Shown here piece after piece: positions 17,530 through 55,764 of a stretch of 64,000 nucleotides of DNA. Each line of letters starts with the position of its first letter. The first letter of the stretch is position 1. The notes under the pieces are model-generated. The model was not told the origin of the DNA. It saw nothing but the letters and a program-made list of their open reading frames with translations, and searched no databases. The stretch lies in assembly GCA_965201115.1 (NCBI GenBank), contig OZ241745.1, positions 2,953,166 to 3,017,165 of the forward strand, written 5' to 3'. This stretch comes from Alphaproteobacteria bacterium. GTDB lineage: Bacteria > Pseudomonadota > Alphaproteobacteria > UBA7887. A program made the translations under genes and the position numbers.

Positions 17530-18850
17530 GCTGCGTGTAGTCCACCGAGAAACGCAGCGCAGCGCCGCCGCCGCGCGCCCCGAACGCGCAACCCGCGCCG
17601 TGCGGGCGTGGCGGGCGCTGTCACGCGCGCTGCCCCTTGCCTGCCCGGCGCGGCGCCGGCGGCCTACGCCGCTTCCGCCGCGTCCGGCCAGCGGAAGGGC
17701 TCGCCGCTCGCCAGCATGCGATGCAGGATGACCGCCAGCCGCCGCGCCAAGGCCACGCACGCCTTCTTGAAACCGCTTCGCTTGCGCAACCGCCGCGCCC
17801 AGTCCTTGAGCGGATGACCGCGCTTGACCCGCGTCAGCAGGCAAGCCGCGCACTCGTACAGCAGCGACCGCACGCCGGGATCGCCGTGGCGCGATATGCG
17901 CCCCGTCCAGTCCATCTCCCCCGATTGACGCCGACGCGGCACAAGCCCCACATACGCGCCCACAGATCGCGAATCGGCAAACCGCGCCGCATCGCCCAAG
18001 TTCGCAACCAGCGCCACAGCCGTCATCGGCCCCACGGCCGGAGCCGTCATCGACAGCCGGCAGGCCTTGCTGGCCCGCGCCCGCGCCTCCACCTGCCTGG
18101 TGAGCGCCTTGAGCGAATGCAGCGTCTGCGCCAGCGAAACCAGCAACGGCTCCACCGCTTCCTGCAGCGGCGTATCCATGACCGCCTCGCGAACCCGCGC
18201 CGAAAACCGGCCCGAACCCTTCGAAAGCCGAATCCCCGCCGAACCCAGGATGCCCCGGACCGTGTTCTCCGCGTCGCGGCGCTGGCGCACCATAAGCCCC
18301 CGCGCGCGCAACAGCGCCTGCGTATTCGCGTCCCAAGCCCGCTTCACCGAAACCGGGGGGCAGAACTTCGTGCGCGCGATATCCGCCAGCAACGCCGCGT
18401 CCTTCGCATCCGTCTTGTTCGTCTGAAGGCGAAGCACCGCGTGAACGCGCCGAGCGTCCACCACATCCACGGCCTGCCCCAACGCCTCCATCTCGCGCGC
18501 CAGCCAGCCCGAATACGTCCCCGTCTCCATGACCACGCGCGCCGGCGACGGGCAGTGCTCGCGCACCGCCGCAAACAACGCCGCCGGATCCGTCGCAACC
18601 TTGCCCGCGACAACCGTCGCACCCGCATCGTTCTTGACGCAAAACGCCGTCTCTTCCTTCGACACGTCGAAACCGACATACTCCGCCATGGTCGCTCTCC
18701 CTGTTGGGTCCGTGAGTGGGGCGCACAACCCTGCGTGCGCAGCCCCGCATGATAGACCCGGGAGAGCGACCGACCGGAATTATCCCATGTCGGCGCCCCG
18801 CGCGACGTCGGCGATCCCTCGGGGGGCGCCTTCGTTCGGCGCCATGTGCT
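17530..18850 (-). mobile_element. IS110-family insertion sequence (ends approximate; family lacks clear inverted repeats)
   Basis: Transposase gene plus flanking leader and trailer. 9-bp-stem hairpin about 100 bp downstream of the transposase stop (about 17528-17570). Confidence 0.3.
17664..18689 (-). CDS. IS110 family transposase
   Basis: MAEYVGFDVSKEETAFCV... (DEDD N-terminus) and C-terminal GVGPMTAVALVANLGDAARFADSRSVGAYVGLVPRRRQSGE.... Confidence 0.85.
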   Translation of the reverse strand: MAEYVGFDVSKEETAFCVKNDAGATVVAGKVATDPAALFAAVREHCPSPARVVMETGTYSGWLAREMEALGQAVDVVDARRVHAVLRLQTNKTDAKDAALLADIARTKFCPPVSVKRAWDANTQALLRARGLMVRQRRDAENTVRGILGSAGIRLSKGSGRFSARVREAVMDTPLQEAVEPLLVSLAQTLHSLKALTRQVEARARASKACRLSMTAPAVGPMTAVALVANLGDAARFADSRSVGAYVGLVPRRRQSGEMDWTGRISRHGDPGVRSLLYECAACLLTRVKRGHPLKDWARRLRKRSGFKKACVALARRLAVILHRMLASGEPFRWPDAAEAA

Positions 18851-18853
18851 ATA

Positions 18854-19921
18854 ATGGCCGCCATGCGCGAGATACACGATGCCTCCTTCAAACTGTTTTT
18901 CGAGCATGAGCGGGCGGTCGCCGACCTGCTCGGGGGTTTCATGCGGCAGGCGATGGGCCCGGAGTTCGATGTCTCGCGCCTCGACCTCGCCAGCCTCGAA
19001 CCGGCGCCGGCGGAGTACGTGGACGAGGATCTGCGGCAGACGCGGGGCGACCGCGTGTGGCGGCTGCGCTACCGCGCCGCCGACGGCACGACCGGCTGGG
19101 TCTATCTGCTGGTCATGCTGGAGTTTCAGTCGCAGGTCGACCTGGACATGGCGGTGCGCGTGTATGCGTACACGGCTCAGTTGTATTCGCGGCTTCGCCG
19201 GGACGACCGGAAGAACCGGCGCGCGGGACCGCTTCCGCCGGTTTTGCCGATTGTCGTTTACAACGGTCGTGCGCGTTGGTCTGCGTCGCGGGAGGTTCGC
19301 GACGAGATAGCGCCTGCGGAGGCGGCGCTGGAGCGTTTTCAGCCCCGGCAGGGTTACCTGCTGCTCGATGTTCATCGTCTGCGGCCGGAGGATTTGCCGG
19401 CGGGCAACGTTGTGTCGGCGCGTTTTGCGCTTGAGCACGGCGATCCGGAGGCCGTGCCGGCGGTTGTCGCGGCGTTGCGTCGGTTGCTTTCGGGTCCGGA
19501 GCATGCGAGTTTGCGCCGTGCGTTCGGGGCGACGCTTCGACACATGATCGAGGCGAACCGGTTCGGGGCTTCGGACGGCGCGCTGGCTGCGCGTTTGAGG
19601 CGGGTCGGGGATTTGGAGGATTTGGGCGCGATGGAATCGTTGTTTGCGGAACGGCTCGACAGTTTGCTTGCCGAGCGCGAAGCGCGCGGCGTATCTCTTG
19701 GCGAGGCGCACGGTCTTGAGCGTGGCGCGGCGCGCGAGCGTGCGCTTCTGGCGCGGCAGGCGGGCCGCAAGTTCGGGGCGGAGGCGGCTTCGCGGCTGGC
19801 GGCTGCGGTGGCGGGCGTGGACGATCCGGACCGACTCGAGGAGGTCGGCGACGCGGTGATCGTGTGCGCGAGCGGCGACGCGCTGCTGGCGCGCGCCAAG
19901 GAGATCGCCCACCGCCGCTGA
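18854..19921 (+). CDS. Rpn family recombination-promoting nuclease / putative transposase (YhgA-like, PD-(D/E)xK)
   Basis: MAAMREIHDASFKLFFEHERAVADLLGGF...WVYLLVMLEFQSQVDLDMAVRVYAYTAQLY. TATAAT hexamer at 18848-18853. Confidence 0.7.
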   Translation: MAAMREIHDASFKLFFEHERAVADLLGGFMRQAMGPEFDVSRLDLASLEPAPAEYVDEDLRQTRGDRVWRLRYRAADGTTGWVYLLVMLEFQSQVDLDMAVRVYAYTAQLYSRLRRDDRKNRRAGPLPPVLPIVVYNGRARWSASREVRDEIAPAEAALERFQPRQGYLLLDVHRLRPEDLPAGNVVSARFALEHGDPEAVPAVVAALRRLLSGPEHASLRRAFGATLRHMIEANRFGASDGALAARLRRVGDLEDLGAMESLFAERLDSLLAEREARGVSLGEAHGLERGAARERALLARQAGRKFGAEAASRLAAAVAGVDDPDRLEEVGDAVIVCASGDALLARAKEIAHRR

Positions 19922-20160: not shown

Positions 20161-20375
20161 AAAGCCGTTACGCCCCTCCCGCCAATGATCGGCACTGTCG
20201 AGACGCGCCCACGGCGCGTCTTGACCGGTCCCGAAATAACGTTGCGCTCGCGCGCCGTGTATGGCGTAATGCCTGCATCCGCGCGTTGCCCATTTCCGCC
20301 GAGGAGCGCTCCGTCATGACAATGCCCTGTCCACACCGAGGGGTTACGCCCTCGCTTGCCGTGCAAACAAACGTA

Positions 20376-20393
20376 CCCCCCCCCCCCCCCCCC
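20376..20393 (+). repeat. Homopolymeric poly-C(18) tract at the 5-prime end of the giant autotransporter gene (candidate slipped-strand phase-variation switch)
   Basis: 18 consecutive C, read as 6 Pro codons in ORFs 20286.. and 20356... Lies 20 nt upstream of ATG 20413. Confidence 0.6.
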
Positions 20394-20458
20394 GTGGCAG
20401 GCGGAATCTCGCATGGAAACGCTCGCTTCGGAGCATCGGCGCCGCGCTCGCGCCGGGG

Positions 20459-22810
20459 TTGCTTCTCGCGCTCGCCTTGTGGGCCGGGCATGCGCCGGCG
20501 CAGACGAACGTGTGCCGCGGCGGGCCGCCCACGGGCAGCGGAAATATCGAATGCGTCGAATCCAGCGGCGCGGCCGACATCCTCATCGCCCTGGGGAACG
20601 CCGGCATCGACCATTCCACCAACAACGAGGCGAGCATCCTGGCTCGTCACGGCGGTACCGGCGGCATCGAGTTTCGCATGACGGCCGGAACCGTCGTAGG
20701 CAGGGGGACCGCCACTCACGGCATGTATGCCCGGCACGACGGAGCGACCGGCGGCGGCGCCATAGTCATCCGCATGAGCGGCGGCTCCGTCGAGACGCGG
20801 GGGTCGGGCGCCTTTGCCATCTGGGGCAGGCGCGCGACCGGGACGGGCAATATCCGCATCGACGTGACCGGCGGTTCCCTGTCGAGAACGGGGGGGACAG
20901 GCGATGTCGTTTTGGGCCAACACGGGGGGACGGGCAACGTAAGCGTCAGCATGAGCGGCAGCGCGGCGACGGGGACGAACGTCGGCGGCCTCGCCGGCGC
21001 CCACTCCGGGACGGGCAACATCGCCGTCAGCATGACCGGCGGCTCCATCGCGACGAGCGGCGTGGGCGTCACCGCCTCGAAGAGCAGCTCCACGGCGGGC
21101 AACATAACCGTCACCGTCGCGGGCGCGAACACTACGGTCAAGACGACGGGCAGCAACGGCCACGCCGTCAACGCCTCCAACAGCGGGGCGGGCAGCACCG
21201 CGGTCACCGTGAAAGACGGCCTGATCGAGACGAGCGGAGGCGGGGCCCGGGGCATCAACGCCTATTCCAACTATACGGGGACGAACCCCGGAGCGATCTC
21301 CGTCGTCATGGAAGGCGGCGCGGTCCGCACGTCGGGCGGGGCTTACTTCGATATCCTCCACGCCCACGGGATTTACGCCGAGAGCAACAATGGGCGCCAC
21401 AACGTCTCGGTGCGCATGGCGGGCGGCTCGGTCGAGACGGCGCAGGCAAGCGCCAACGGGATAATCGTCCTCAAGCGGGGGCCGGCGGGAGCGGGCTCCA
21501 TCGAGATGACGGGCGGCTCGGTCAGAACGGCGGGCGACGGCGCCCGCGGCGCCTACGTCTATATGTATGGAACCGGCGCGAGCACGGAGGGGCTTTCTAT
21601 CGACGCGGAGGGCGCCGTCTCCGCGGAGGGTCTGAACGCCAGAGGTCTCGCGGGATTCCACTTGGGCCTCGGCTCCGCCACTATAACGACGCGGGCGGCG
21701 GCGGAGATCGAGGCGCCGTTCGCGGTCGGGATGGAGGGGCGTCTCACGAGCGATACGAGCGCGGCGGGGCGCATCGTGGTCACGCATGGGGGCGCGGTCG
21801 AGGCGCGGGATGTCGGCGTGCTCGCGTGGGCGCGGCGGTCGAGCGGCCACACGATGGGCTCCGGCGCGACGACGGCGAACGACGCGGCGCGGACGACGCC
21901 GATGATCCACGTTACGTCGAGCGGAACGGTCACGGTGGGCGCGCCGGTGACGGAGGCTTTCATCCGGGGCCGCATCGCGGGCGACGGCGGACTGTCGACG
22001 CTCGAGGAGGCCGTGCTTACGGCGATAACGGATAACGATTCGAGCGCGCTGACGACGGCGCTGGCGGCGCTTCCGGCTTCTTACGACGCCGCCTGGAAGG
22101 CGGCGGCGCAGGAACTTCTGCGCAAGCGCACGACGGCGACCGCGACACCGACCGACAACGCGGTGCTGGGGCATCGTGCGGCCGAGGAGATCTTGGGCCT
22201 TTCGCGCGCGGGCATCCGCGCTTCGGCGCTTTCCCACACGGCGATCGCCGATTATGTGCGCGGCAGCGACGCGCTCTCGACCGCGGAGCGCACGGCGCTG
22301 ACGGCCGTGCTGACGGGCGACAGCAGCGGGCTGACGACGGCGCTGACCGCCCTTACCGGCGCCGCGTACACGACGGCGTGGAAGAACACGGTCCGGCAAC
22401 ACGCGTTGACCTACAATGCCGGCGATATTCAGGTGGACATTACGGGCGGCTCCATTACCGCCGACGGGAACGGCGTGGAGGCGTTCTATGCGATCCCGCA
22501 CGACAGCAACGGCGACATCGCGGTGACGGTTTCCGCCGGCGCGCGTGTTACGGGCGGTGCGACGGGCATCTATGTCCGCGGCGCGGGCGTGACGGCGGGC
22601 GCGCGCAACCAAGCGGTGACGGTCCACGGCGCCGCGATGGGCGGAACCGGGGCGGGCGTGCATGCGGTCGGCGGCGGCGCGGTGACGGTGGGCGCGAGCG
22701 GCGAGGTAGGCACGGTGGGCGCGGCGCCTTCGGGCATCGGCATTCTCGGCGATGGCGGCGGCGATCTGACGGCGACGGTTTCGGGGACGGTGACGGGCGA
22801 CATCCGCGTC
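20459..22810 (+). CDS. Giant autotransporter adhesin, N-terminal reading-frame segment (signal peptide plus Gly/Thr-rich passenger repeats); frame broken at 5-prime end and at about 22.8 kb
   Basis: Frame 2 encodes RSLRSIGAALAPGLLLALALWAGHAPAQ (signal peptide) but has no in-frame ATG as sequenced. Repeats continue to ...TVSGTVTGDIRV at 22810, then the true frame shifts +1. Confidence 0.6.
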
Positions 22811-25800
22811 AGTCAATGGCGGCGGCGGCCTGGCGGCGACGGTCAAGGACGGCGGCACGGTTACGGGCGACATCCGCGTCGGCGGCAGCGGTTCGTTGAC
22901 GGCGATGGTCGAGGCCGGCGGCGCGGTGGAGGGGACGATACGCGACCCGCAGGCTTCGTTCACGGTTTCGGGCAGCGTCGGGCGCGTTCTCTATGCTTCG
23001 GGCGGAACGGTGACGGTGGCCGGGGGCGCGAAACTGACGGGCGTCTCCGGCACGGCCGCCGAGAGCACGGCGGGGGCGCTGACGGTCACGGTCCAAAACC
23101 GGGGCCGCGTCGAGGCCGACATCGAGTCCGGCGGGACGCTGATGGTTACCGTCAACGACGGCGGCGTGGTAACGGGGACGATAGAGGATCCGCAGGCTTC
23201 GTTCACGGTCGGGAGCGGGGCGCGCATCGGGCGCATTCTTTACACCGGCAGCAGCGGCGGGACGGTGACGGTGTCCGGCGGCGGGACGCTTACGGGCGTC
23301 GAGGGCGTGGCCGCCGAGAGCACGGACTCGGGGGGCGCGCTGACGGTCACGGTGAACGACAACGGCCGCGTCGAGGGCGACGTCAAGTCGGCCGGCACGC
23401 TGTCGGCGACCGTCGATGCCGGCGGCGTGGTTACGGGGACGATACACGACCCGCAGGCTTCGTTCACGGTTTCGGGCAGCGTCGGTCGCGTTCTCTATGC
23501 CTCGGGCGGAACGGTGACGGTGTCCGGCGGCGCGAAGCTGACGGGCGTCGAGGGCGTGGCCGCCGAGAGCACGGCCGGCGCGCTGACGGTTGCGGTGAAC
23601 GACAACGGCCGCGTGGAGGGCGATATCAAGTCGGGCGGCACGCTGTCGGCAACCGTCGATGCCGGCGGCGTGGTTACGGGAACGATACACAACCCGCAAG
23701 CTTCGTTCACGGTTTCGGGCAGCGTCGGTCGCGTTCTTTACGCCAGCGGCGGAACGGTGACGGTGTCCGGCGGCGCGAAGCTGACGGGCGTCGAGGGCGT
23801 GGCGGCGGAGAGCGCGGCGGGCGCACTGACGGTCACGGTGAACGACAACGGCCGCGTCGAAGGCGACGTCAAGTCGGCCGGCACACTGTCGGCGACGGTC
23901 AACGTCGGCGGCGTCGTGACGGGGACGATACACAACCCGCAAACGCCGTTCACGGTTTCGGGCAGCGTCGGGCGCGTTCTTTACGCCGGCGGCGGAGCGG
24001 TGACGGTATCCGCGGGCGGGACGCTGACGGGCGTCGAGGGCGTGGCCATCGAGAGCACAACCGGCGCGCTGACGGTCACGGTGAGCAACCGGGGCCGCGT
24101 CGAGGGCGGCATCGAATCGGGCGGGACGCTGACGGCGAACGTCATGGCCGGCGGCGTCGTGACCGGAACGCTCCGCAACCCGCAGAGTCCGCTCACGGTT
24201 TCGGGCAGTGTGGGGCGCATTCTCTATGCCCGCGCGAGCGGCGGGACGGTGACGGTCGCCGCCGGCGGCGCGGTAACGGGCGTCGAGGTCGATGGCGCAA
24301 CCGAGGCGATCCGCGGCAATGCGGGCAATCTCGACGTCACGGTGGCGGCGAGGGGCGCGGTCACGGGTCTCGTCGAGGGCCGCGGGCCGGGCAATCTGAA
24401 GGTTACGGTCGCCGGCTCGTTGGCGGGCGGCATTGCCGAGCGCGCCGCGGGCGATCTTGAGGTTTCGGTCGCCGGAACGGTTACGGGCGGCATTGTCGGC
24501 GCGGGCGCGGGCGAACACACGGTCACGGTGGCGTCCGGCGGCGCGGTTACGGGGACGGTACATTTGGCGACCGGCGCGGCGACCATCGCGGGCCGCGCGG
24601 CGCGCGTGCTTTACGACAACGGCGGCATGGCGACGGTCGCCGCGGGCGGCGAGATCGCGGGCGTCGATGTCGAGGGAACGATGGAGGCGATTCGCAACGA
24701 TGCGGGCAATCTCGAGGTCACGGTTGCGTCCGATGGGGAGGTTGCGGGGCGCATCGAGGATCGCGGCGCGGGCAATCTCGAGGTCGAGGTTTCCGGCGCG
24801 GTCGCGGGCGGCATCGTCGAACGCGAGGCGGGCAATCTGGACGTCACGGTGACGGCCAGCGGCGCGGTCACGGGCAACATCGAGGGCCGCGATGCGGGCA
24901 ATCTGAAGGCCGCGGTCTCCGGAAACGTAACCGGCGATATCGTCGAACGCGGGGCGGGCGATCTCGACGTCACGGTGTCGGCAACGGTCACGGGCGGCAT
25001 TGTCGGCGAGGGCGCGGGGGCGCACAAGGTGTCGGTGGAGTCCGCCGGCGCGGTAACAGGCACGGTGCGCCTGCCGGGGAACGCGGAGACGACGGTCGCG
25101 GGCACGGTGGGGCGCGTTCATTACGACAACGGAGGCGCGGTCACGGTCAACGCGAACGGCGAGATTGCGGGCCTCGAGATCGAGGGCGTCCGGGAGGCGG
25201 TCCGCGGCGACGCGGGGGATTTGGCGGTTACCGTTCACGGGACGGTAACGGGCAATATCGAGGCGCGCGGCGATGGCGACCTGACGGTGATGGTTTCGGA
25301 GACCGGGACGATTGCGGGGGAGATATTCGGTCGCGGCGGGGGCATGCATACGATCGAGATCGCGGACAAGGCGCGGGTTGTGGGCACGGTGCATAACCCG
25401 AAGCGGGGGACGACCATAAGCGGCGCGGTGGGCCGCGTTCTGTTCGACAACGGCGGCGCGCTGACGATTGCGGCGAGCGGTCGCGTCTCTGGCGTCGGCG
25501 GCGAGGCGATCCGCAGCGCGGCGGGCGACCTGGAGGTCGCGATTGCCGGCGAGGCGACCGGAAATGTTGAGAGCCGCGGCGGGGCGCTGGCGGCGACGGT
25601 AACCGGCACGGTCGAGGGCGACATACTGGGTCTCGGCGCCGGCGAGCACACGGTGGCGGTTCGCGGCGGCGGGATGGTTACGGGCACGGTGCGCCTGGCG
25701 GCGGGCGAGGCGGATGTGGAGCACGGCGCGGCCGGGCGCGTGCTGCTGGACCGGGGCGGGTCCGTGAAGGTCGGGGCGCGGGGCGAAATCAAGGGCCTCG

Positions 25801-28310
25801 AGGTCGAGGGCGTTCGGGAAGCGATCCGTTCCGACGCGGGAGACCTGACGGTGGCGATTGCGTCCGGCGGCGCGGTCAAGGGCCGCATCGAGGGGCGCGG
25901 CGCGGGCAACATGACCGTGAACGCGGGCGGCGCGGTGACGGGCGCCATCCTTGGCAAGGGCGCCGGTAGGCACGAGATCGCGGTCGCCTCCGGCGGCTCG
26001 GTTACGGGCGACATCGTCGATATGGAGGCCGGCGGCCTGGTCGCGACGGTCGCGGGTTCGGTTACGGGCGCAATTGAGGAGCGCGGCGCGGGGGACCTGA
26101 CGGTAACGGTTGCGGGCGCGGTTTCCGGGGATATCCGCGGCCTGGGCGCCGGCGTGCATCGGGTTACGGTTGCGTCCGGCGGTTCGGTTGCGGGCGCCAT
26201 CCGCGGCGCGGGCGCGGGTTCGCACGCAGCGACGGTCGCGGGCCGCGCGGCGCGCGTGCTCTACGAGAACGGCGGTTCGGTCACGGTCGCATCCGGCGGC
26301 GCGGTGTTGGGCGTCGGGACTTCGGACGGCGGTCGCGAGGCGATCCGCGGCGCGGCGGGCGACCTGACGGTGGACGTAGCGGCGATGGGGACCGTGGCGG
26401 GCGATATCCGCGGCGCGGGCGATGGCGATCTGAAGGTGGATGTGAGCGGCAAGGTCGAGGGCGGGATATTCGGCCTTGGCGGCGGCGAGCACGACGTTCA
26501 TGTGAAATCCGGCGGCTCGGTCGAAGGTCTCATCCACCTGGCCGCCAGCACGGTGACGGTCGAAGGGGCCGCCCGGAGCGTGCTGTTCGACCGCGGCGGC
26601 ACGGTGTCGGTCGGCGCCGGGGGGCGCCTGTCGAACCTCGACGGGCGTGCGGCGGTGCGCAGCGAAGCCGGCGATCTGATGGCGATGGTGAACGGCAATG
26701 TCACAGGCAATATCGAGGGCATGGGCGCCGGAGCGCTGATGGTCACGGTCGCCAACGAACTGACCGGCGGCGTCATCGGCGGCGACGGCGGCATGCACCG
26801 GCTGACGGTGGCGGCCGGCGGGACGTTCAAGGGGCACGTCGAGGGCCTGGAGGCCATTCGCATCGCCGGGCGCGCGGAAGCGGCGCGCCCGCTGACGGTT
26901 TCCGATGGCGGCGAGGTGACGGTCGCGGCTGGCGGCGTGCTCATGGGCGCGGAGGACGCGCAGGGCCGCCGCGTGGCGGTCTCCGTTGCAACGGGCGCGC
27001 TGAACATGACGGTCGAAGGGGAAGGCATGGTGCAGGGCGCCGTGGAGGCGCGCGACGCCGCCGCCGCCTCGACCGTGACGGTCGATGCCGGCGGCGCCAT
27101 CGACGGCCGCGTCGCGCTGGCGGGCGCCGGCAGCGAAGTCACGGTCGACGGCGCGGCGCAGAGCGTCGATGTGCCCCGGGGCGCGGTGACGGTGGGCGAG
27201 AACGGGCGCATCGCGGAGCCCGTCATCGGCGCCGAGACGGTAACGATACGTGCGGCGGCGGGCGAAACCGACGAGGAGGCGGCGCTGCGCCTGGGCGGCG
27301 GCCGCATCGACGCCGCCGGCGCGACGATTACGCTCAAGCGCCAGGGCCGCGTCGATTCGCGTCTCCGGATAACCCGCGACGGTCGCATCGAGGTGGGGCC
27401 GGCGCCGCGCCACCGCGTGTACGAAGCTCTGCCTTCGGCTCTGCTGGCGCTGAATGCACTGCCCGCCCACGGCGACCGTTTCGCCGCGGCGGGCGCGCCG
27501 CGCGGCGCGTTCGCGCGCCTCGACGCCGCCGGCGGCGACCGCCATCCGGCGTCGTCTGTCGCGCAGGCGCATCACGATTACCGCCGCTTCGGTTTCGAGG
27601 CGGGGATAGAGGGCGCGGCGGGCGAGCGCGGCGTGTTCGCGATCTCGGTTCATCATGTGCGCGGCCGCGCGGACGTGGACACGGACGCGGACACCGAGGC
27701 GGGCGGCGGCCGTGTCGAGATAACCGGCACGGGCGCGCGCATATCGGGCGCATGGCTGCCCGCGGAGAACGTCTATGTGAGCGCTCAGGCCGCGGCGACG
27801 CTGTACGAGACCGACCTCGATTCGGACGTGGCGCTCGAGGGCGCCCTTGCGCGGGACTTGTCGGGCCGCGGCTACGCCGCCGGCGTGGAGATCGGGCGGC
27901 GCCTCGACCTGGGCCGCGTAACGCTGACGCCGCGCGCGGGCGCCGATTGGTCGATGGTGGAGATGTCGTCGTTCACGGACTCCGTGAACGAGCGCGTGTC
28001 GCTGGACGCGGGCCGGCGCATAACGGCCCGCGCCGGCGTGCGCGCCGAGTCCGCCGCCCTCCCCGGCGGCGCCGGCGCCATGTTCGCAACGCTGGACCTT
28101 GAGCGCGAACTGTCCGGCGCAATGGAAACCACGGCGGCGGACCGCCCCTTCGAAGCCGAAGCGGAAGCGACATGGGCCCGCCTCGGCCTCGGCGCCGCCC
28201 ACGAATGGGCCGACGGCCGCATAGCCCTCCGCGCCAACGCCAACTACGCCGCCGCCCGCCACGGCAACCGAGACTTCAGCGGCAGCGCCGCACTCACCGT
28301 GCGCTTCTGA
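22809..28310 (+). CDS. Giant autotransporter adhesin, C-terminal segment: about 1,500 aa of tandem Gly/Val/Thr-rich passenger repeats plus autotransporter beta-barrel translocator (ends ...AALTVRF)
   Basis: Frame 0 is open from 22794 (first ATG at 22896). Repeats are of the type GGxVTGTIxDPQASFTVSGSVGRVLYASGGTVTVSGGAKLTGVEGVAAESTAGALTVTVNDNGRVEGD. C-terminal beta domain has a terminal aromatic residue. Confidence 0.7.
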   Translation, partial: SVNGGGGLAATVKDGGTVTGDIRVGGSGSLTAMVEAGGAVEGTIRDPQASFTVSGSVGRVLYASGGTVTVAGGAKLTGVSGTAAESTAGALTVTVQNRGRVEADIESGGTLMVTVNDGGVVTGTIEDPQASFTVGSGARIGRILYTGSSGGTVTVSGGGTLTGVEGVAAESTDSGGALTVTVNDNGRVEGDVKSAGTLSATVDAGGVVTGTIHDPQASFTVSGSVGRVLYASGGTVTVSGGAKLTGVEGVAAESTAGALTVAVNDNGRVEGDIKSGGTLSATVDAGGVVTGTIHNPQASFTVSGSVGRVLYASGGTVTVSGGAKLTGVEGVAAESAAGALTVTVNDNGRVEGDVKSAGTLSATVNVGGVVTGTIHNPQTPFTVSGSVGRVLYAGGGAVTVSAGGTLTGVEGVAIESTTGALTVTVSNRGRVEGGIESGGTLTANVMAGGVVTGTLRNPQSPLTVSGSVGRILYARASGGTVTVAAGGAVTGVEVDGATEAIRGNAGNLDVTVAARGAVTGLVEGRGPGNLKVTVAGSLAGGIAERAAGDLEVSVAGTVTGGIVGAGAGEHTVTVASGGAVTGTVHLATGAATIAGRAARVLYDNGGMATVAAGGEIAGVDVEGTMEAIRNDAGNLEVTVASDGEVAGRIEDRGAGNLEVEVSGAVAGGIVEREAGNLDVTVTASGAVTGNIEGRDAGNLKAAVSGNVTGDIVERGAGDLDVTVSATVTGGIVGEGAGAHKVSVESAGAVTGTVRLPGNAETTVAGTVGRVHYDNGGAVTVNANGEIAGLEIEGVREAVRGDAGDLAVTVHGTVTGNIEARGDGDLTVMVSETGTIAGEIFGRGGGMHTIEIADKARVVGTVHNPKRGTTISGAVGRVLFDNGGALTIAASGRVSGVGGEAIRSAAGDLEVAIAGEATGNVESRGGALAATVTGTVEGDILGLGAGEHTVAVRGGGMVTGTVRLAAGEADVEHGAAGRVLLDRGGSVKVGARGEIKGLEVEGVREAIRSDAGDLTVAIASGGAVKGRIEGRGAGNMTVNAGGAVTGAILGKGAGRHEIAVASGGSVTGDIVDMEAGGLVATVAGSVTGAIEERGAGDLTVTVAGAVSGDIRGLGAGVHRVTVASGGSVAGAIRGAGAGSHAATVAGRAARVLYENGGSVTVASGGAVLGVGTSDGGREAIRGAAGDLTVDVAAMGTVAGDIRGAGDGDLKVDVSGKVEGGIFGLGGGEHDVHVKSGGSVEGLIHLAASTVTVEGAARSVLFDRGGTVSVGAGGRLSNLDGRAAVRSEAGDLMAMVNGNVTGNIEGMGAGALMVTVANELTGGVIGGDGGMHRLTVAAGGTFKGHVEGLEAIRIAGRAEAARPLTVSDGGEVTVAAGGVLMGAEDAQGRRVAVSVATGALNMTVEGEGMVQGAVEARDAAAASTVTVDAGGAIDGRVALAGAGSEVTVDGAAQSVDVPRGAVTVGENGRIAEPVIGAETVTIRAAAGETDEEAALRLGGGRIDAAGATITLKRQGRVDSRLRITRDGRIEVGPAPRHRVYEALPSALLALNALPAHGDRFAAAGAPRGAFARLDAAGGDRHPASSVAQAHHDYRRFGFEAGIEGAAGERGVFAISVHHVRGRADVDTDADTEAGGGRVEITGTGARISGAWLPAENVYVSAQAAATLYETDLDSDVALEGALARDLSGRGYAAGVEIGRRLDLGRVTLTPRAGADWSMVEMSSFTDSVNERVSLDAGRRITARAGVRAESAALPGGAGAMFATLDLERELSGAMETTAADRPFEAEAEATWARLGLGAAHEWADGRIALRANANYAAARHGNRDFSGSAALTVRF

Positions 28311-28320
28311 TCGCGGAAGA

Positions 28321-28485
28321 AGCCGCAACCCCGCCGAAGGCGGGGCCCGGGACCGCGGGCATCCTGCCCGCACGTTGCCGCAGGCCGCGATATTGCTGGG
28401 AGCGGCGATCATCAAGCCCCTCTTGGCAGCATTTGTAGCGTTGGCAACGTGCGGGCGGGGATGCCCGCGGTCCCGGGCAGTCCGC
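28321..28485. repeat. REP/MITE-like repeat: one full unit plus an inverted partial unit (hairpin pair, possible terminator downstream of the autotransporter gene)
   Basis: aaccccgccgaaggcggggcccgggaccgcgggcatcctgcccgcacgttgccg ... gtgcgggcggggatgcccgcggtcccgggcag. Confidence 0.5.
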
Positions 28486-51721: not shown

Positions 51722-53400
51722 AACCGACCGTTAGCCCGCATTTCTCATACGGGTGGTTGTCGTGCGGTTTGTGCGTCGTTGGTTATCGTGCGTGCGTGTT
51801 TTCGTGGTCGGGGGGCTTGGCGGGCATTTTCGGGGCGCGTTGGGGCGGTCCGCCGTTTGGCGGTGGGCCGCGTTCCGGGCTGTTCCTGCGTTGTTGAGGG
51901 GAAGGGCGAGAGTGGCCGCGTTACGCCGCGGCGGCGGATAATCGTTGGCAGGCGATACGGAACTCGCGCTGGAAGGGATGCGCGGCGTTCATGGCGATCT
52001 TGACGCGGCGCACGGTGACGCGGACCCAAGCGCCGATCTTGAGCAGTTTCAGGCGCAGGCTCCCGCATGTGGCGACCGCCAGTTCGGTGTAGTCGAGGCC
52101 GATGCGGCGCAGTGCGCACAGCAACACATAAGCCATGGACGCGAACCACAGGCGCAGCTGGTTGGCCCGCATGGCCCGCGTCGACGTGCGGTCGGCGAAC
52201 AAGTCGAGTTGGCACTCCTTGATCCGGTTCTCCATCTCGCCGCGTTGGCAGTAAAGCCGCTCGTAGAGATGCCGGGCGCGGACCCGATGGGTTGCAATCG
52301 AGGTGACGACGAAACGCGGGTTGGCCTTGCCGTGGGTCCACTCGGCCTTGGCGACGACGCGGCGCGCGCAGCTCCAGCTGTCGCGCGTCCTCCACATGAA
52401 GTCCTTGAAGCGGCGTTGCGGCTTGCCCGAACCCGCGCTGTGCGCTTGCGCCGCCGCCAGTTCGGTCTCGACTTCCGCCGCCAGACGGGGGTTCCGCGCC
52501 AAGCCCAACAGGTAATCGACGCCGTTGGCCTCGCACCACGCCATCAGCGCCTCGCGGGCGAACCCCGAATCGGCGCGCACCATTATCCGCACGCGGGGCC
52601 AATGCCGCCGCAACCGCGACACAATCCGCTCAACAGTCTCCACGGCCCCGGCCGCCCCATCCTCATTCGCCGGGCGCAACCGCGCCGCCAAAAGATGACG
52701 ACCGCAAGTCGCATAAAGCGGAAGATAGCAATAGCCGCCGTAGTAGCCGTGGAAAAAACGACCCTCCTGGCGACCGTGAAGCCGATCGTCCGTGGCGTCG
52801 AGATCGATAACCAAGCGAGCCGGGGGCCGCTTGTGCGCCTCCACAAACAGTGTCAGGAACAAATCCTCAATCGCCGAGCCGTCATGCGCGATCCGGCAAT
52901 ACCGCGACGGCCCCGCGCCCCCCAACTCAAGGCGGTTCAGCGTCGATTTGCCCGCAAGCGGCGCACAGTCCGAACGACGCGACGCCAACTTCCCCGCCAA
53001 CACGGCCATGACCGGATCGTGACGCAACGCATCGTGGTCGTTCAGGTCCTCATATCCCAATGCGATCCCGAACACGCGCTGCATGACCAGCGTCCGAACA
53101 TCGTGCTCGACAAGATGACGCGCACGCCCATCGGTGAAACAGGCCGCAAACCGATCGACCAGACCCACCGCCGCATCCGCCCGGCCAAGCAACAATGCCC
53201 CCGCGTCCGACGTCACCGTCCCGCCGTCGAACGCCGCCACAACCGCGCGACCGTCGACCGGTTGAAAACCGCCCAGCGCCGTGCTACACTCCGTCTGCAT
53301 CGGGGAACACCTCCGTGCCGCGATATGTGCATACTCAACAACACTATATCGCACACAGAGCCCCGATGCCCCAAACCCGTATGAGAAATGCGGGTTAGCC
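51722..53400 (-). mobile_element. IS1380 family insertion sequence with about 25-bp imperfect terminal inverted repeats
   Basis: Left IR at 51722-51747 (cgttagcccgcatttctcatacggg); right IR at 53376-53401 (reverse complement ggctaacccgcatttctcatacggg). Single transposase ORF. Inserted within the REP cluster. Confidence 0.75.
51921..53300 (-). CDS. IS1380 family transposase (DDE)
   Basis: 459 aa, MQTECSTALGGFQPVDGRAVVAAFDGGTVTSDAGALLLGRAD... typical of IS1380. Confidence 0.85.
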   Translation of the reverse strand: MQTECSTALGGFQPVDGRAVVAAFDGGTVTSDAGALLLGRADAAVGLVDRFAACFTDGRARHLVEHDVRTLVMQRVFGIALGYEDLNDHDALRHDPVMAVLAGKLASRRSDCAPLAGKSTLNRLELGGAGPSRYCRIAHDGSAIEDLFLTLFVEAHKRPPARLVIDLDATDDRLHGRQEGRFFHGYYGGYCYLPLYATCGRHLLAARLRPANEDGAAGAVETVERIVSRLRRHWPRVRIMVRADSGFAREALMAWCEANGVDYLLGLARNPRLAAEVETELAAAQAHSAGSGKPQRRFKDFMWRTRDSWSCARRVVAKAEWTHGKANPRFVVTSIATHRVRARHLYERLYCQRGEMENRIKECQLDLFADRTSTRAMRANQLRLWFASMAYVLLCALRRIGLDYTELAVATCGSLRLKLLKIGAWVRVTVRRVKIAMNAAHPFQREFRIACQRLSAAAA

Positions 53401-53474
53401 CCGCCGCGCCAACCCCCGCAGGGGAGGACCATGGTCCTCTCCCGCCCCCCGCCCCAAATCGCTTTAATATCCGC

Positions 53475-54545
53475 ATGACCGAAGCACACGCCGCCGCCGT
53501 CCCCGCCGACGGCGAGCCGCGCGCAGCCGCCGCGCCCGACAACGCCGCCGCCGCGCCCACCGAACCCGAAACCCAACCCCCCGGCGACCCCCTCCGCCAC
53601 AACCGCGGAAGCCGATCCACAATCGCCGACCTCCCCAACACCGTCCGAGCCGATATCTGCCGCGAAATCCGCGCGGGACCCCCCGACACCGCCATCGCCG
53701 AAACCCTCCGCGCGCGCGGATACCCCGTATCCCGATCCGCCATATACCGCTTCCGCAAAGCCGCCGCCGACAGCCTCGCCCAATGGTCCGAAATCCGCGA
53801 CGCCGCCGCACTCTGGAGCGAAGGCGGAACCCACGAAGCCCTCGCCGAAATGCTCCGCGTCGCCGCCTTCGCCATCGCCGCGCGCATCGACCCCGCCGCC
53901 CCCGATGCCGCCGACAACACCCGCGGCATCGCCCGCATGGTGCGCGCCATCCGCGACCTCGCCGCCGCCGAAGCCGCGCGGAAAACCGCCGCCGCCCAGG
54001 CCGGCCCCCGCCGCGGCGCGCCCGGTTCCATCGACGACCCCCGCCTGCCCTTGCTCCCGCCCCCGAACACGTGGGACGCCGACGCCCAGGCCGCCGCCAA
54101 CCCCGGCCCCCCCAAGCCGCCCCGCCGCCCGTGGACCGACCGGGACTGGCTGGAATACGACAGACACATCCAGGAGGGCGAACGCAAGGCCCGCGAAGCC
54201 GAACGCGAACGCCGCGAGGCCGAACGCGAATACGACCCCGCGTACGACCCCGAAACCGCCGAACGCCCCGCCGCCGAAGCCCCCCGAGCCCCGCGGAGCC
54301 CCGCAATGCCCCGCAACGCTGCCGAAGGCGCGAACTGCCCGGGACTGCGGGCGTCCCGCCCGCACGTTCCCGCAAGGCGCGATGTCGGCAGGGAAGGCGC
54401 GCCCGCCCGCCCCGGGCCCGGCGGATCCCCGCAATGCCCCGCAACCGCCCCCCGGAACCGCCGGGCCCGACCGCCCCGCGACCGCCGAAGCCCCGCCCGC
54501 CGCCGCCCCGCCCGCCTCGAACAACCGAAACGGCAGCAATGCTGA
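53475..54545 (+). CDS. DUF3486-like (phage Mu gp27-like) HTH protein, probable prophage remnant; C-terminus runs into the REP array
   Basis: STIADLPNTVRADICREIRAGPPDTAIAETLRARGYPVSRSAIYRFRKA. Residues beyond about 54290 are REP-derived. Confidence 0.4.
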   Translation: MTEAHAAAVPADGEPRAAAAPDNAAAAPTEPETQPPGDPLRHNRGSRSTIADLPNTVRADICREIRAGPPDTAIAETLRARGYPVSRSAIYRFRKAAADSLAQWSEIRDAAALWSEGGTHEALAEMLRVAAFAIAARIDPAAPDAADNTRGIARMVRAIRDLAAAEAARKTAAAQAGPRRGAPGSIDDPRLPLLPPPNTWDADAQAAANPGPPKPPRRPWTDRDWLEYDRHIQEGERKAREAERERREAEREYDPAYDPETAERPAAEAPRAPRSPAMPRNAAEGANCPGLRASRPHVPARRDVGREGAPARPGPGGSPQCPATAPRNRRARPPRDRRSPARRRPARLEQPKRQQC

Positions 54546-54945
54546 GCGCCTGTACCGAAATGCTTGCCCCGCCGAAGGCGGCGCCCGGGACCGCGGGCAT
54601 CCTGCCCGCACGTTTCCGGCAGGCGCGATGTCGGCAGGGAAGCACGCCCGCCGCCCCCCGCTCCCCGGCCCCCGCGGCATCGAGACGCGCGCGCGAGACG
54701 CACACGCCAACCCCGCCGAAGGCGGGGCCCGGGACCGCGGGCATCCTGCCCGCACGTTCCCGCAAGGCGCGATGGCGGCAGGGAAGGCGCGAACGTCCCG
54801 GTCGCGCCCGCCCCGGGCCCGGCGGAGCCCCGCAATGCCCCGCAACCGGCCCCGGAACCGCCGGGCGCGAACGTCCCGCGACCGCCGCCGTCCCCGCCCG
54901 CACGTTTCCGCGCCGCGCGATGTCGGCACGAAAGCGCGAACGGAC
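54290..54945. repeat. Array of five or more degenerate REP/MITE-like units (not CRISPR)
   Basis: Repeated ccccgccgaaggcgg(g/c)gcccgggaccgcgggcatcctgcccgcacgtt(c/t)ccgcaaggcgcgatg(t/g)cggcagggaagg with GC-rich variable linkers. Confidence 0.55.
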
Positions 54946-55067
54946 AAGATGCCCACCGATCCCGGCCGTACCGATAGCCGCCGAATTCCGGTACAGGCTC
55001 TCAATGATCGCAAACACCGGCGGGCGGTGCGCGAAGACCGCGACTCCCCGGCAACATCGCGCCCGGC

Positions 55068-55140
55068 GAAAACGTGCGGGCGGGGACGCCTGCGCTCCCA
55101 GGCCCCGCCTTCGGCGGGGTTGCGCGCCCCGAACGGTCGG
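55068..55140. repeat. REP/MITE-like unit in inverted orientation
   Basis: aaacgtgcgggcggggacgcctgcgctcccaggccccgccttcggcggggtt. Confidence 0.5.
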
Positions 55141-55158
55141 TGTCGGCGGCCCTCGGGA

Positions 55159-55764
55159 TTACTTCCGGCGCGCGGCGAAGGCGGCGTAGTCGGCGGGGAT
55201 GTCGACGTCGAAGGCCAGGCCGGGGCGATCGACGAAGACGGGGCGCAGGCCGCGGCGGCGCGCTTCGCGCTCGTGCGCGGCGGCGCTGTCGGCGCCGAAG
55301 CGAAACCGGAACGCGCGCACAGCAGGCACAAGCAGCGCATTCGTGCCGTGGCCCGCGCGGTCGCGCGCGATGGGCGCCGCGCCGCGCCGCGCGCCCGCCG
55401 CCAACAACAGGCGGACGTCGGCCGGCGACAGGAAGGGCAGGTCCGCCGGCAAAACGAGCAGCGCCGCCGCGCCGCCGGCGCGGGCGGCGCGCAGGGCGCG
55501 CCCGAGCGCGCGGTTCAGCCCGCGGCCCGGCGCCGCGAGCGCATCGGCGCCCAGCGCCCTGGCCAGCGCCAGCGCGTCCGCGCCGTCGCTCACCGCCAGA
55601 ACGCGGCCCGGCGCCGCGCGCCGCGCCGTCGCCAGCGTGCGCCGCAGGAAGAACGCATTGAGCGCGCGCCGCTCGCGCGCGCCGAGTATGCCGGAGAGAC
55701 GGGATTTCCCGCGGCCCAGCGCCTTCGCCGGAACCGCCACGCGCACCCGCGCGCGCAGCGTCAC
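55159..55764 (-). CDS. cofC: 2-phospho-L-lactate (phosphoenolpyruvate) guanylyltransferase, F420 biosynthesis
   Basis: 201 aa. VAVPAKALGRGKSRL...LLVLPADLPFLSPADV (MobA-like nucleotidyltransferase fold). Adjacent to cofD. Confidence 0.7.
   Translation of the reverse strand: MTLRARVRVAVPAKALGRGKSRLSGILGARERRALNAFFLRRTLATARRAAPGRVLAVSDGADALALARALGADALAAPGRGLNRALGRALRAARAGGAAALLVLPADLPFLSPADVRLLLAAGARRGAAPIARDRAGHGTNALLVPAVRAFRFRFGADSAAAHEREARRRGLRPVFVDRPGLAFDVDIPADYAAFAARRK

Follow-up and report, generated by a model that had tools for sequence, protein, structure and literature searches.

A 4-bp tandem duplication breaks the assembled reading frame of a large autotransporter gene, one of at least 15 paralogues in an uncultured high-GC bacterium

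Bordetella pertussis carries multi-copy autotransporter repertoires in which single members have been inactivated by small indels while their paralogues stay intact. The autA gene of Neisseria meningitidis is disrupted in 76% of genomes by premature stops, insertions and/or deletions, and has an AAGC tetranucleotide repeat switch directly after its start codon; another described switch works through a homopolymeric C tract close to the 5' end, which fixes the reading frame and so turns expression on or off (PMC5472700). Here we describe an autotransporter gene, one of at least 15 paralogues, in a 64-kb stretch of DNA (the whole stretch that was analysed, hereafter the window) from a 3.67-Mb genome of 70% GC, whose relatives are complete long-read MAGs, mostly labelled Alphaproteobacteria. 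As assembled, the gene is broken by a tandem duplication of four bases; most likely it is an ordinary member of a large gene family that was inactivated recently.

Judging from its predicted domains, the gene (~20316-28310) encodes a classical (type Va) autotransporter of ~2630 aa, in which a putative Sec signal peptide is followed by a long, repeat-rich passenger and, at the C-terminus, a beta-barrel (Table 1). The barrel matches PF03797 over profile positions 8-255 of 255 (Pfam, E=2.8e-27), as befits the 12-stranded translocator domain of a type Va protein, and TIGR01414 (NCBIfam, E=4.8e-22), and the protein ends in ...LTVRF; the passenger had no family match in Pfam or NCBIfam. On inspection of the sequence the putative signal peptide (KRSLRSIGAALAPGLLLALALWAGHAPA followed by QT) has the typical n-h-c pattern, which is kept in homologues. 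The uninterrupted passenger and barrel reading frame of a type Va protein is broken at 22808-22815. The protein-like translation lies in mod3=2 up to ...TVSGTVTGDIRV and in mod3=0 from SVNGGGGLAATVKDGGTVTGDIRVGGSGSL..., and third-position GC passes from frame 2 to frame 0 between ~22650 and ~22950, then stays at 0.81-0.92 to 28310. With P0213, an intact 2515-aa paralogue on the same 3,674,140-bp contig, as tblastn query, the frame of the window changes at 22812/22813: the alignments run in frame 2 to 22813 and in frame 0 from 22812 to 28307 (1834 aa, 94.7% identity), this single frame-0 alignment leaving no further frameshift downstream. Translation, third-position GC and tblastn thus bear out a preliminary description of this DNA, which had placed a +1 change from frame 2 to frame 0 inside an autotransporter at 22808-22811, across two overlapping open reading frames (20459..24460 and 22896..28310) that are both listed. 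In the source annotation the downstream segment is a separate 1801-aa protein (P0121, 100% identity).

Table 1. Features of the autotransporter gene and its 5' region, in window coordinates.
Feature	Position	Strand	Remarks
Upstream ORF start, MTMPCPHRGVTPSLAVQTNV...	20316..20375	+	reads into poly-C tract
Poly-C tract, C18	20376..20393	+	between SD-preceded ATG 20316 and signal-peptide coding sequence
ATG aligned with homologue start codon	20413..20415	+	one base out of frame with signal peptide
Upstream coding segment, mod3=2	20417..22810	+	signal peptide and N-terminal passenger (~800 aa)
Signal peptide coding sequence, KRSLRSIGAALAPGLLLALALWAGHAPA	20417-20500	+	
Rung A, passenger domain, 20 codons, DGGGDLTATVSGTVTGDIRV	22751..22810	+	
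18-mer copy 1	22793..22810	+	encodes TGDIRV, end of rung A, frame mod3=2
Lesion, GTCAGTCA	22808..22815	+	tandem duplication of GTCA, 2.0 copies, +1 frame shift
Downstream coding segment, mod3=0	22815..28310	+	open, ~1830 codons
Rung B, passenger domain, 22 codons, NGGGGLAATVKDGGTVTGDIRV	22815..22880	+	
18-mer copy 2	22863..22880	+	encodes TGDIRV, end of rung B, frame mod3=0
Tandem array of 243-bp (81-aa) units	22900..24230	+	5.4 copies, 81% identity, begins just past lesion
Autotransporter beta-barrel domain	27534..28244	+	Pfam PF03797, NCBIfam TIGR01414

Comparison with orthologues, which the preliminary description had proposed as a check on the frameshift, found three homologous loci without the extra bases and homologous proteins that match the junction once it is repaired. 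In a MAFFT DNA alignment with the window each of the three loci (L001, L002 and L003) is gapped by exactly 4 bases opposite the extra GTCA; at the site they read GTCCAG, ATCCAG and GTCGAT, respectively. The duplicated sequence occurs once in the window, and no homologue or paralogue has a GTCA repeat at this position; relatives carry a single, non-repeated GTC(G/C)A-type sequence. The indel, relative both to these loci and to P0213, is 4 bp, which is not a multiple of 3 and disrupts the frame. Deleting one GTCA in silico gives a single ORF of 2630 codons whose only stop is terminal, and the repaired junction (...GDIRVNGGGG...) aligns without gaps to P0033, P0004, P0091, P0092 and P0052, with P0213 showing ...GDIRVNGGGDL... 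at the same place. We rejected a single-base insertion in place of a 4-bp one, as it leaves an extra residue (GDIRV-S/V-VNGGGG) present in no homologue and the DNA gap is 4 bases. A search of JGI metagenomes with a junction pattern that tolerated 0-4 additional bases gave no match, and a search of the literature gave nothing specific on autotransporter frameshifts caused by 4-bp duplications. Both frames are open around the site, the one point that speaks for programmed +1 ribosomal frameshifting, by which full-length protein would be made from the sequence as assembled. Open off-frames are normal at 70% GC, however, the site (CGC GTC AGT CAA) has no in-frame stop, rare codon or recognised +1 slippery motif, and all homologues and paralogues read straight through; this lack of conservation effectively refutes programmed frameshifting, whose probability we put close to nil.

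The preliminary description had attributed the frameshift to a 70-bp tandem duplication, on the basis of an 18-mer (ACGGGCGACATCCGCGTC) seen twice, 70 bp apart. An exact search of the window recovers this pair on the + strand only and no other exact copy; allowing up to 3 mismatches raises the number of matches to 6, all within the autotransporter gene, where 0.6 would be expected from shuffles. The 70-bp stretches differ beyond the 18-mer, however, sharing only that and rung-level similarity; the DNA separating the two 18-mers has not been duplicated, and the cause of the frameshift is instead the 4-bp duplication. The two 18-mers are the conserved C-terminal ends (…TVTGDIRV) of adjacent rungs of the putative passenger beta-helix. 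The rung starts (22752-22779 and 22816-22843) are 89% identical, and in the output of a repeat finder the in-register spacing is 64 bp at the starts and 70 bp at the ends, that is, 60+4 and 66+4. The odd 70-bp spacing is thus explained by the GTCA duplication lying between the rungs, and the 18-mers would be in frame at a spacing of 66 bp, where the preliminary description had named 69 or 72 bp. Both rungs are present in P0033, P0004, P0091, P0092 and P0052, and one rung in P0006, P0013 and P0002; since homologues at 55-75% identity share both, the rungs themselves are old.

Pseudogene, phase-off variant and assembly artefact, the alternatives offered at the outset, were the right set to weigh, even though the 70-bp duplication proposed as the cause of the frame change was wrong. 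We consider that the lesion is probably a genuine mutation that recently inactivated one of the paralogues, and that the gene may be regarded as a null allele or recent pseudogene. Replication slippage or a repair event would probably have turned GTCA into GTCAGTCA between the two neighbouring rungs. The N-terminal product would then run on into ~550 out-of-frame codons without reaching a barrel, and the C-terminal product would carry the barrel without a signal peptide, so that no functional surface protein would be made. The window gene is 22-43% identical to P0213 in aa 1-400 and 88-100% identical in aa 500-2630, a mosaic relationship which implies recombination or conversion among copies. 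Because the 1830 downstream codons are still open and 88-100% identical to P0213 per 100-aa interval, the lesion is likely recent, and its loss of function may well be tolerated through redundancy of the paralogues. We rejected a misjoin that would have made the gene a chimera of two paralogues, identity to P0213 being 92-96% on each side of the junction.

We infer that the duplication is present in the organism and not in the consensus alone. The opposite account, that the organism has one GTCA and an intact gene and that the extra bases came from long-read consensus or polishing among similar paralogues, seems to us somewhat unlikely, and yet it has evidence of several kinds on its side. The window comes from a metagenome-type contig, its relatives being long-read MAGs with names like ctg22247_50x_c; paralogous sequence 88-100% identical lies elsewhere in the genome, and such close paralogues might mislead the mapping of reads; the frame is broken at the 5' end as well, beside an 18-base homopolymer of a kind whose length long reads call poorly; and family loci of sister MAGs carry 1-bp G/C-run indels resembling read errors. 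Set against this, a clean 4-bp, non-homopolymer tandem duplication is atypical as an ONT or HiFi error, and the frameshifts in other family loci (L010, L023 and L040) each consist of a 1-bp indel in a G/C run. No frame breaks occur in more than 20 other genes of the window, which have complete single-frame Pfam matches (e.g. XseA 1-314/315, CoA_transf_3 1-366/366, Cys_Met_Meta_PP 1-380/381 and DDE_Tnp_1_4 1-432/435), making a generally error-prone assembly unlikely. Moreover, P0213 reads GDIRVNGGG at the junction, so that cross-mapped P0213 reads would favour a single GTCA. The out-of-frame 5' end could be either a second real lesion, favouring a pseudogene, or poor local consensus, favouring an artefact, and the fragmentary paralogues P0033, P0138 and P0140 fit either reading.

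Two further accounts would give the broken copy a function. Tetranucleotide repeats switch other autotransporters, such as AAGC in Neisseria autA/autB (PMC5472700), the family itself appears to use hypermutable tracts (the upstream poly-C), and a tandem duplication can revert precisely through slippage, so that (GTCA)2 might be a slipped-strand switch holding the gene in a reversible phase-off state. We think this very unlikely: known contingency tracts have many units and lie near the start, whereas this one has only 2, for which reversion would be near the ordinary mutation rate, and lies 2.4 kb into the gene; the repeat is, moreover, absent at this position from every homologue and paralogue, and at 2.0 copies, non-repeated in relatives, it does not have the make-up of a hypermutable tract. 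Alternatively, the frameshifted copy could be a silent archival cassette that donates sequence by gene conversion to expressed paralogues, in a form of recombinational antigenic variation. The at least 15 paralogues, the mosaic relationship to P0213, the fragmentary state of several other genomic copies (P0033, P0130, P0138 and P0140) and the open frame of the downstream codons are all in keeping with such a role, but the last is equally explained by a recent lesion, no donor-recipient event was observed, and leader, signal peptide and barrel are all kept, as in an expression locus and unlike a promoterless cassette. We therefore regard an archival role as distinctly improbable, and retain recent inactivation as the preferred reading.

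The 5' end of the gene presents a separate frame problem. In the assembled sequence none of the SD-preceded start codons shares the frame of the signal peptide, and the upstream segment has no in-frame ATG or GTG, its sole in-frame start codon being a TTG within the signal peptide (20459). A tract of C16 or C19 would bring the ATG at 20316 into the frame of the signal peptide; at the assembled C18, which is the only homopolymer of at least 8 bases in the window, it is out of frame. P0026, P0126 and P0131 carry the leader encoded by the upstream ORF as an in-frame fusion. A 1-nt insertion after the homologue-aligned ATG, or a poly-C of 16 or 19, accounts equally well for the problem. A second 4-bp duplication (CGCTCGCT, 20420-20427) was not supported as its cause, since 4-bp duplicated 8-mers of this kind occur at 0.006 per nt, a chance of ~17% within 30 nt. 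Poly-C/G tracts of 7-32 nt lie no more than 400 nt upstream of the match in 27/37 family loci, and in 20 of these 27 a C tract of at least 8 nt stands directly upstream of the start codon. The tract is C22 in L021 and C23 in L033, whose 300-nt flanks are 100% identical, although long-read homopolymer miscalls could mimic such variation. This family-wide placement of tracts upstream of genes suggests that phase variation may operate there. Most members have a second SD-preceded start codon directly 3' of the tract, so the tract may work via the upstream ORF and not as a plain on/off switch; a sigma-70 promoter scan around the tract found nothing.

A more ambitious reading, which we think unlikely, would combine these observations into a family of giant autotransporters, not described before, that uncultured environmental bacteria of high GC would carry as at least 15 paralogues per genome. 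A hypermutable poly-C (8-32 nt) inside a conserved SD-ATG leader ORF would control each gene, the three tract frames giving an in-frame fusion, an NTGA stop-start overlap with the main start, or out-of-frame run-through; heads would be variable and stalks near-identical and recombining, and the GTCA copy would be a silenced member or donor cassette. If this were so, the broken copy would be not junk but part of a combinatorial surface-variation system of a sort known mainly from host-adapted pathogens.

If recent inactivation, the reading we prefer, is right, the lesion is a further case of paralogue loss within an expanded surface-protein family. The frameshift is chiefly of consequence for annotation: one 2630-aa autotransporter has been split into the two ORFs, a label of frameshifted gene or pseudogene is appropriate for the locus, and the 18-mer repeat is no sign of recent duplication. 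The poly-C tracts across the family suggest, in addition, phase-variable surface proteins in uncultured, probably free-living bacteria. From the frameshift pseudogenes of Bordetella pertussis the window gene differs in taxon, passenger family and lesion type. Its C18 tract, flanked by an SD-preceded ATG and the signal peptide and predicted to be 'on' at C16 or C19, may be comparable to the C-tract switch of PMC5472700; unlike that switch, the tracts of the family reach 32 nt and a second SD-preceded start follows downstream in most members. The autA and autB genes of N. meningitidis likewise encode classical autotransporters and are often found inactivated; the window copy owes its break to a short tandem event of tetranucleotide size, and like autA it also bears a separate tract of hypermutable type at its 5' end. 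However, the autA tract is many-copy, 5' and reversibly switching, whereas GTCA occurs here twice, 2.4 kb in, and is absent from all relatives; and autA is present as one copy in a host-restricted pathogen, whereas the window gene is one of at least 15 paralogues in an uncultured bacterium of high GC.

The giant autotransporter gene (~20316-28310, + strand) changes frame where the preliminary description had placed the switch, running with mod3=2 (frame 2) up to ...TVSGTVTGDIRV and from 22809 with mod3=0 (frame 0) as SVNGGGGLAATVKDGGTVTGDIRVGGSGSL..., and the two overlapping ORFs described there (20459..24460 and 22896..28310) are present. GC3 is 0.83-0.93 in frame 2 (~20400-22800) and then 0.81-0.92 in frame 0 to 28310, in a window with an overall GC of 70.7%. 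We found that the switch site reads ...ATC CGC GTC A GTC AAT GGC... and contains GTCAGTCA at 22808-22815. When one GTCA is removed both frames fuse into an ORF of 2630 codons whose sole stop is the terminal one, and the repaired junction, ...TVSGTVTGDIRV/NGGGGLAATVKDGGTVTGDIRV/GGSGSL..., aligns gaplessly to the homologous proteins P0033 (...GGIRANGGGDLTATVRDGGTVTGDLRVDGGG... at this point), P0004, P0091, P0092 and P0052. Three homologous DNA loci from public assemblies (L001, L002 and L003), 80-82% identical to the window over ~2.5 kb, in all cases (3/3) show a gap of exactly 4 bases opposite the extra GTCA, which in L003 reads ATCCGC----GTCGATGGCGGC. Additional evidence comes from P0213, an intact paralogue of 2515 aa whose contig is of the same length as that of P0121, the window's own downstream product (both 3,674,140 bp), and whose junction sequence is ...TVSGTVTGDIRVNGGGDLAATVKDGGTVTGDLRVGGSGAL.... 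Searched against the window with tblastn, P0213 gives a frame-2 HSP to 22813 and a frame-0 HSP at 22812-28307 (1834 aa, 94.7% identity), the latter a single HSP to 28307 with no further frame break downstream of the lesion. The homologue gaps, the P0213 alignment and the repair by deletion of GTCA all indicate that the lesion is a 4-bp tandem duplication. Programmed +1 frameshifting is effectively excluded as an account of this site, being needed by no homologue and having no recognisable signal.

The frame switch had previously been ascribed to a 70-bp tandem duplication marked by the 18-mer ACGGGCGACATCCGCGTC at 22793-22810 and 22863-22880. This 18-mer does occur in exactly two copies in the 64-kb window, both on the + strand, and at up to 3 mismatches it has 6 matches against 0.6 expected, all within the autotransporter gene. 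However, there is no support for such a duplication having occurred, nor for its having caused the frameshift, as the two stretches concerned are alike but not duplicates. The 18-mers encode TGDIRV, which closes two adjacent beta-helix repeats of the passenger domain, rungs A and B, and the repeat finder gives a spacing of 64 bp (60+4) for the rung starts, at 89% identity, and of 70 bp (66+4) for their ends. Both rungs are present in homologues of only 55-75% identity to the query (one rung in some), so this repeat is an old feature, native to the protein, and strong GC3 codon bias acting on a conserved motif accounts for the exact 18-nt identity.

Features of the autotransporter region and of related loci (window coordinates unless a locus is named)
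Feature	Position	Strand	Remark
IS110-family transposase	17664-18779	-	immediately upstream of autotransporter gene
YhgA-like transposase	18716-19921	+	immediately upstream of autotransporter gene
C18 tract	20376-20393		sole homopolymer of at least 8 bases in the 64-kb window; ~20 nt 5' of homologous start codon
Rung A	22751-22810		20 codons
Rung B	22815-22880		22 codons
Tandem array	22900-24230		243-bp (81-aa) units, 5.4 copies, 81% identity; starts ~85 bp past lesion
DDE_Tnp_1_4 transposase	~51921-53270	-	
Frameshift in L010 (other MAG)	~4600		
Frameshift in L023 (other MAG)	~5328		
Frameshifts in L040 (other MAG)	~4495 and ~5295		
Poly-C/G tracts in L004-L035	~2600-2970 of each locus		

Of the pseudogene, phase-off variant and assembly artefact proposed earlier, we lean towards the first, a real and recent inactivating mutation, with an artefact placed second and rather doubtful. 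Phase variation at the GTCA site is unlikely, since there are just two tetranucleotide units, no relative carries the repeat there and its position is 2.4 kb into the gene. An artefact is favoured by the metagenomic source, by the near-identical paralogues elsewhere in the genome and by the 5' end of the gene, which is likewise out of frame as assembled; however, a clean 4-bp duplication outside a homopolymer is atypical as a long-read error, and P0213 has GDIRVNGGG at the junction, so that any reads cross-mapped from it would favour the single-copy state. Moreover, more than 20 other genes of the window match Pfam domains completely and in a single frame (among them XseA, CoA-transferase, MoeA, UvrC, Cys/Met PLP enzyme, ECH, MoxR, DUF58, transposases, Peptidase_C26, SDRs and GCS2), so indels are not a general problem of the assembly. 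Identity to P0213 is also equally high on either side of the junction, which excludes a chimeric join at this point. The relatives are complete long-read MAGs (e.g. OZ241738 and OZ241901; contigs are named in the style of ctg22247_50x_c), and the window probably derives from the same kind of data. Frameshifts were found in 3/37 family loci of sister MAGs (L010, L023 and L040), all of them 1-bp indels in G/C runs (GCGGCG to GCGCG, ATGGCC to ATGCC, and G7 and G6 runs); they represent either errors of long-read sequencing or true pseudogenes, and are another type of lesion than the 4-bp duplication of the window. A search of JGI metagenomes with a junction pattern tolerating 0-4 extra bases returned no match.

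Frame 2 opens with a typical signal peptide, KRSLRSIGAALAPGLLLALALWAGHAPA/QT, and the C-terminal 636 codons carry the autotransporter beta-barrel (Pfam PF03797, E=2.8e-27; TIGR01414, E=4.8e-22), ending in ...LTVRF. The passenger between them is long, periodic and Gly/Thr/Val-rich, with no match in Pfam or NCBIfam; past its tandem array lie 60-bp periodic stretches at 24381-24514 and 24747-25005. The conceptually repaired N-terminal 1016 aa retrieved 163 homologues, most of them 1400-1750 aa; in alignment the homologues cross the junction in a single frame. As assembled, the upstream part would run through ~550 out-of-frame codons to 24460 without a barrel, and the downstream part, annotated in the source as P0121 from MVEAGG... 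at 22905, has the barrel and lacks the signal peptide; judged from these domains, neither part could work as an autotransporter. Long antisense ORFs shadow the gene at 20168-22963 (-; 931 aa) and 22809-28415 (-; 1868 aa). Such ORFs are not genes; strong GC3 bias in DNA of 70% GC would be expected to produce them, and the 931-aa ORF may be why the upstream half matched no database protein.

The source genome holds at least 15 paralogues of the giant autotransporter. Compared with P0213, the window gene shows 22-43% identity in aa 1-400, rising to 88-100% in aa 500-2630, which suggests a variable head on a common stalk and barrel, and with it recombination among copies. Several other copies are fragmentary (including P0033, P0130, P0138 and P0140), and our data suggest that copies are frequently inactivated. 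Mobile-element genes flank the region at 17664-19921 and 51921-55514. The frameshift is an ordinary lesion that affects one member of an expanded autotransporter family and matters chiefly for annotation; the poly-C tracts found across the family are the more interesting lead.

As assembled, the gene appears to be 'off' at its 5' end too. The ATG at 20413, which the alignment pairs with the start codons of the homologues, misses the frame of the signal peptide by one base; an upstream ATG at 20316, after GAGGAG, opens MTMPCPHRGVTPSLAVQTNV and runs into the C18 tract. From this ATG a tract of C16 or C19 would read ...PPPPPP RGRRNLAWKRSLRSIGAALAPGLLLALALWAGHAPAQT... in frame, whereas the assembled C18 is out of frame. 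Three causes would fit: use of ATG 20316 with C16/C19, a single G inserted behind the ATG at 20413, or duplication of CGCT at 20420-20427, although the last falls short of significance (p ~0.17). The leader is fused in frame in P0026 (from L003, the closest orthologue), and likewise in P0126 and P0131, two paralogues from the window's own genome. Among 37 family loci of other MAGs, 27 have a poly-C/G run of 7-32 nt in the 400 nt preceding the match, usually with no other long homopolymer in ~8 kb of locus, and in 20 of these 27 it is a C tract of at least 8 nt just upstream of the start codon. These 20 share a conserved leader of SD (GGAGGAG/GAGGAG), ATG/GTG and ~8-20 codons before the tract, and 3' of it a second SD and then the main start codon, always followed by A (NTG-A), so that a leader ORF in the +1 frame would stop at the overlapping TGA. 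Of 21 tract-bearing loci (window gene included), 9 have leader and main ORF in the same frame. Two paralogues of one genome, L021 with C22 (out of frame) and L033 with C23 (in frame), have 300-nt flanks that are 100% identical. Long-read homopolymer miscalls could give the same length differences, and for this reason the role of the tract is unproven; the poly-C nevertheless looks like a candidate contingency (phase-variation) tract common to the family, resembling those known from Neisseria NalP and AusI (PMC5472700).
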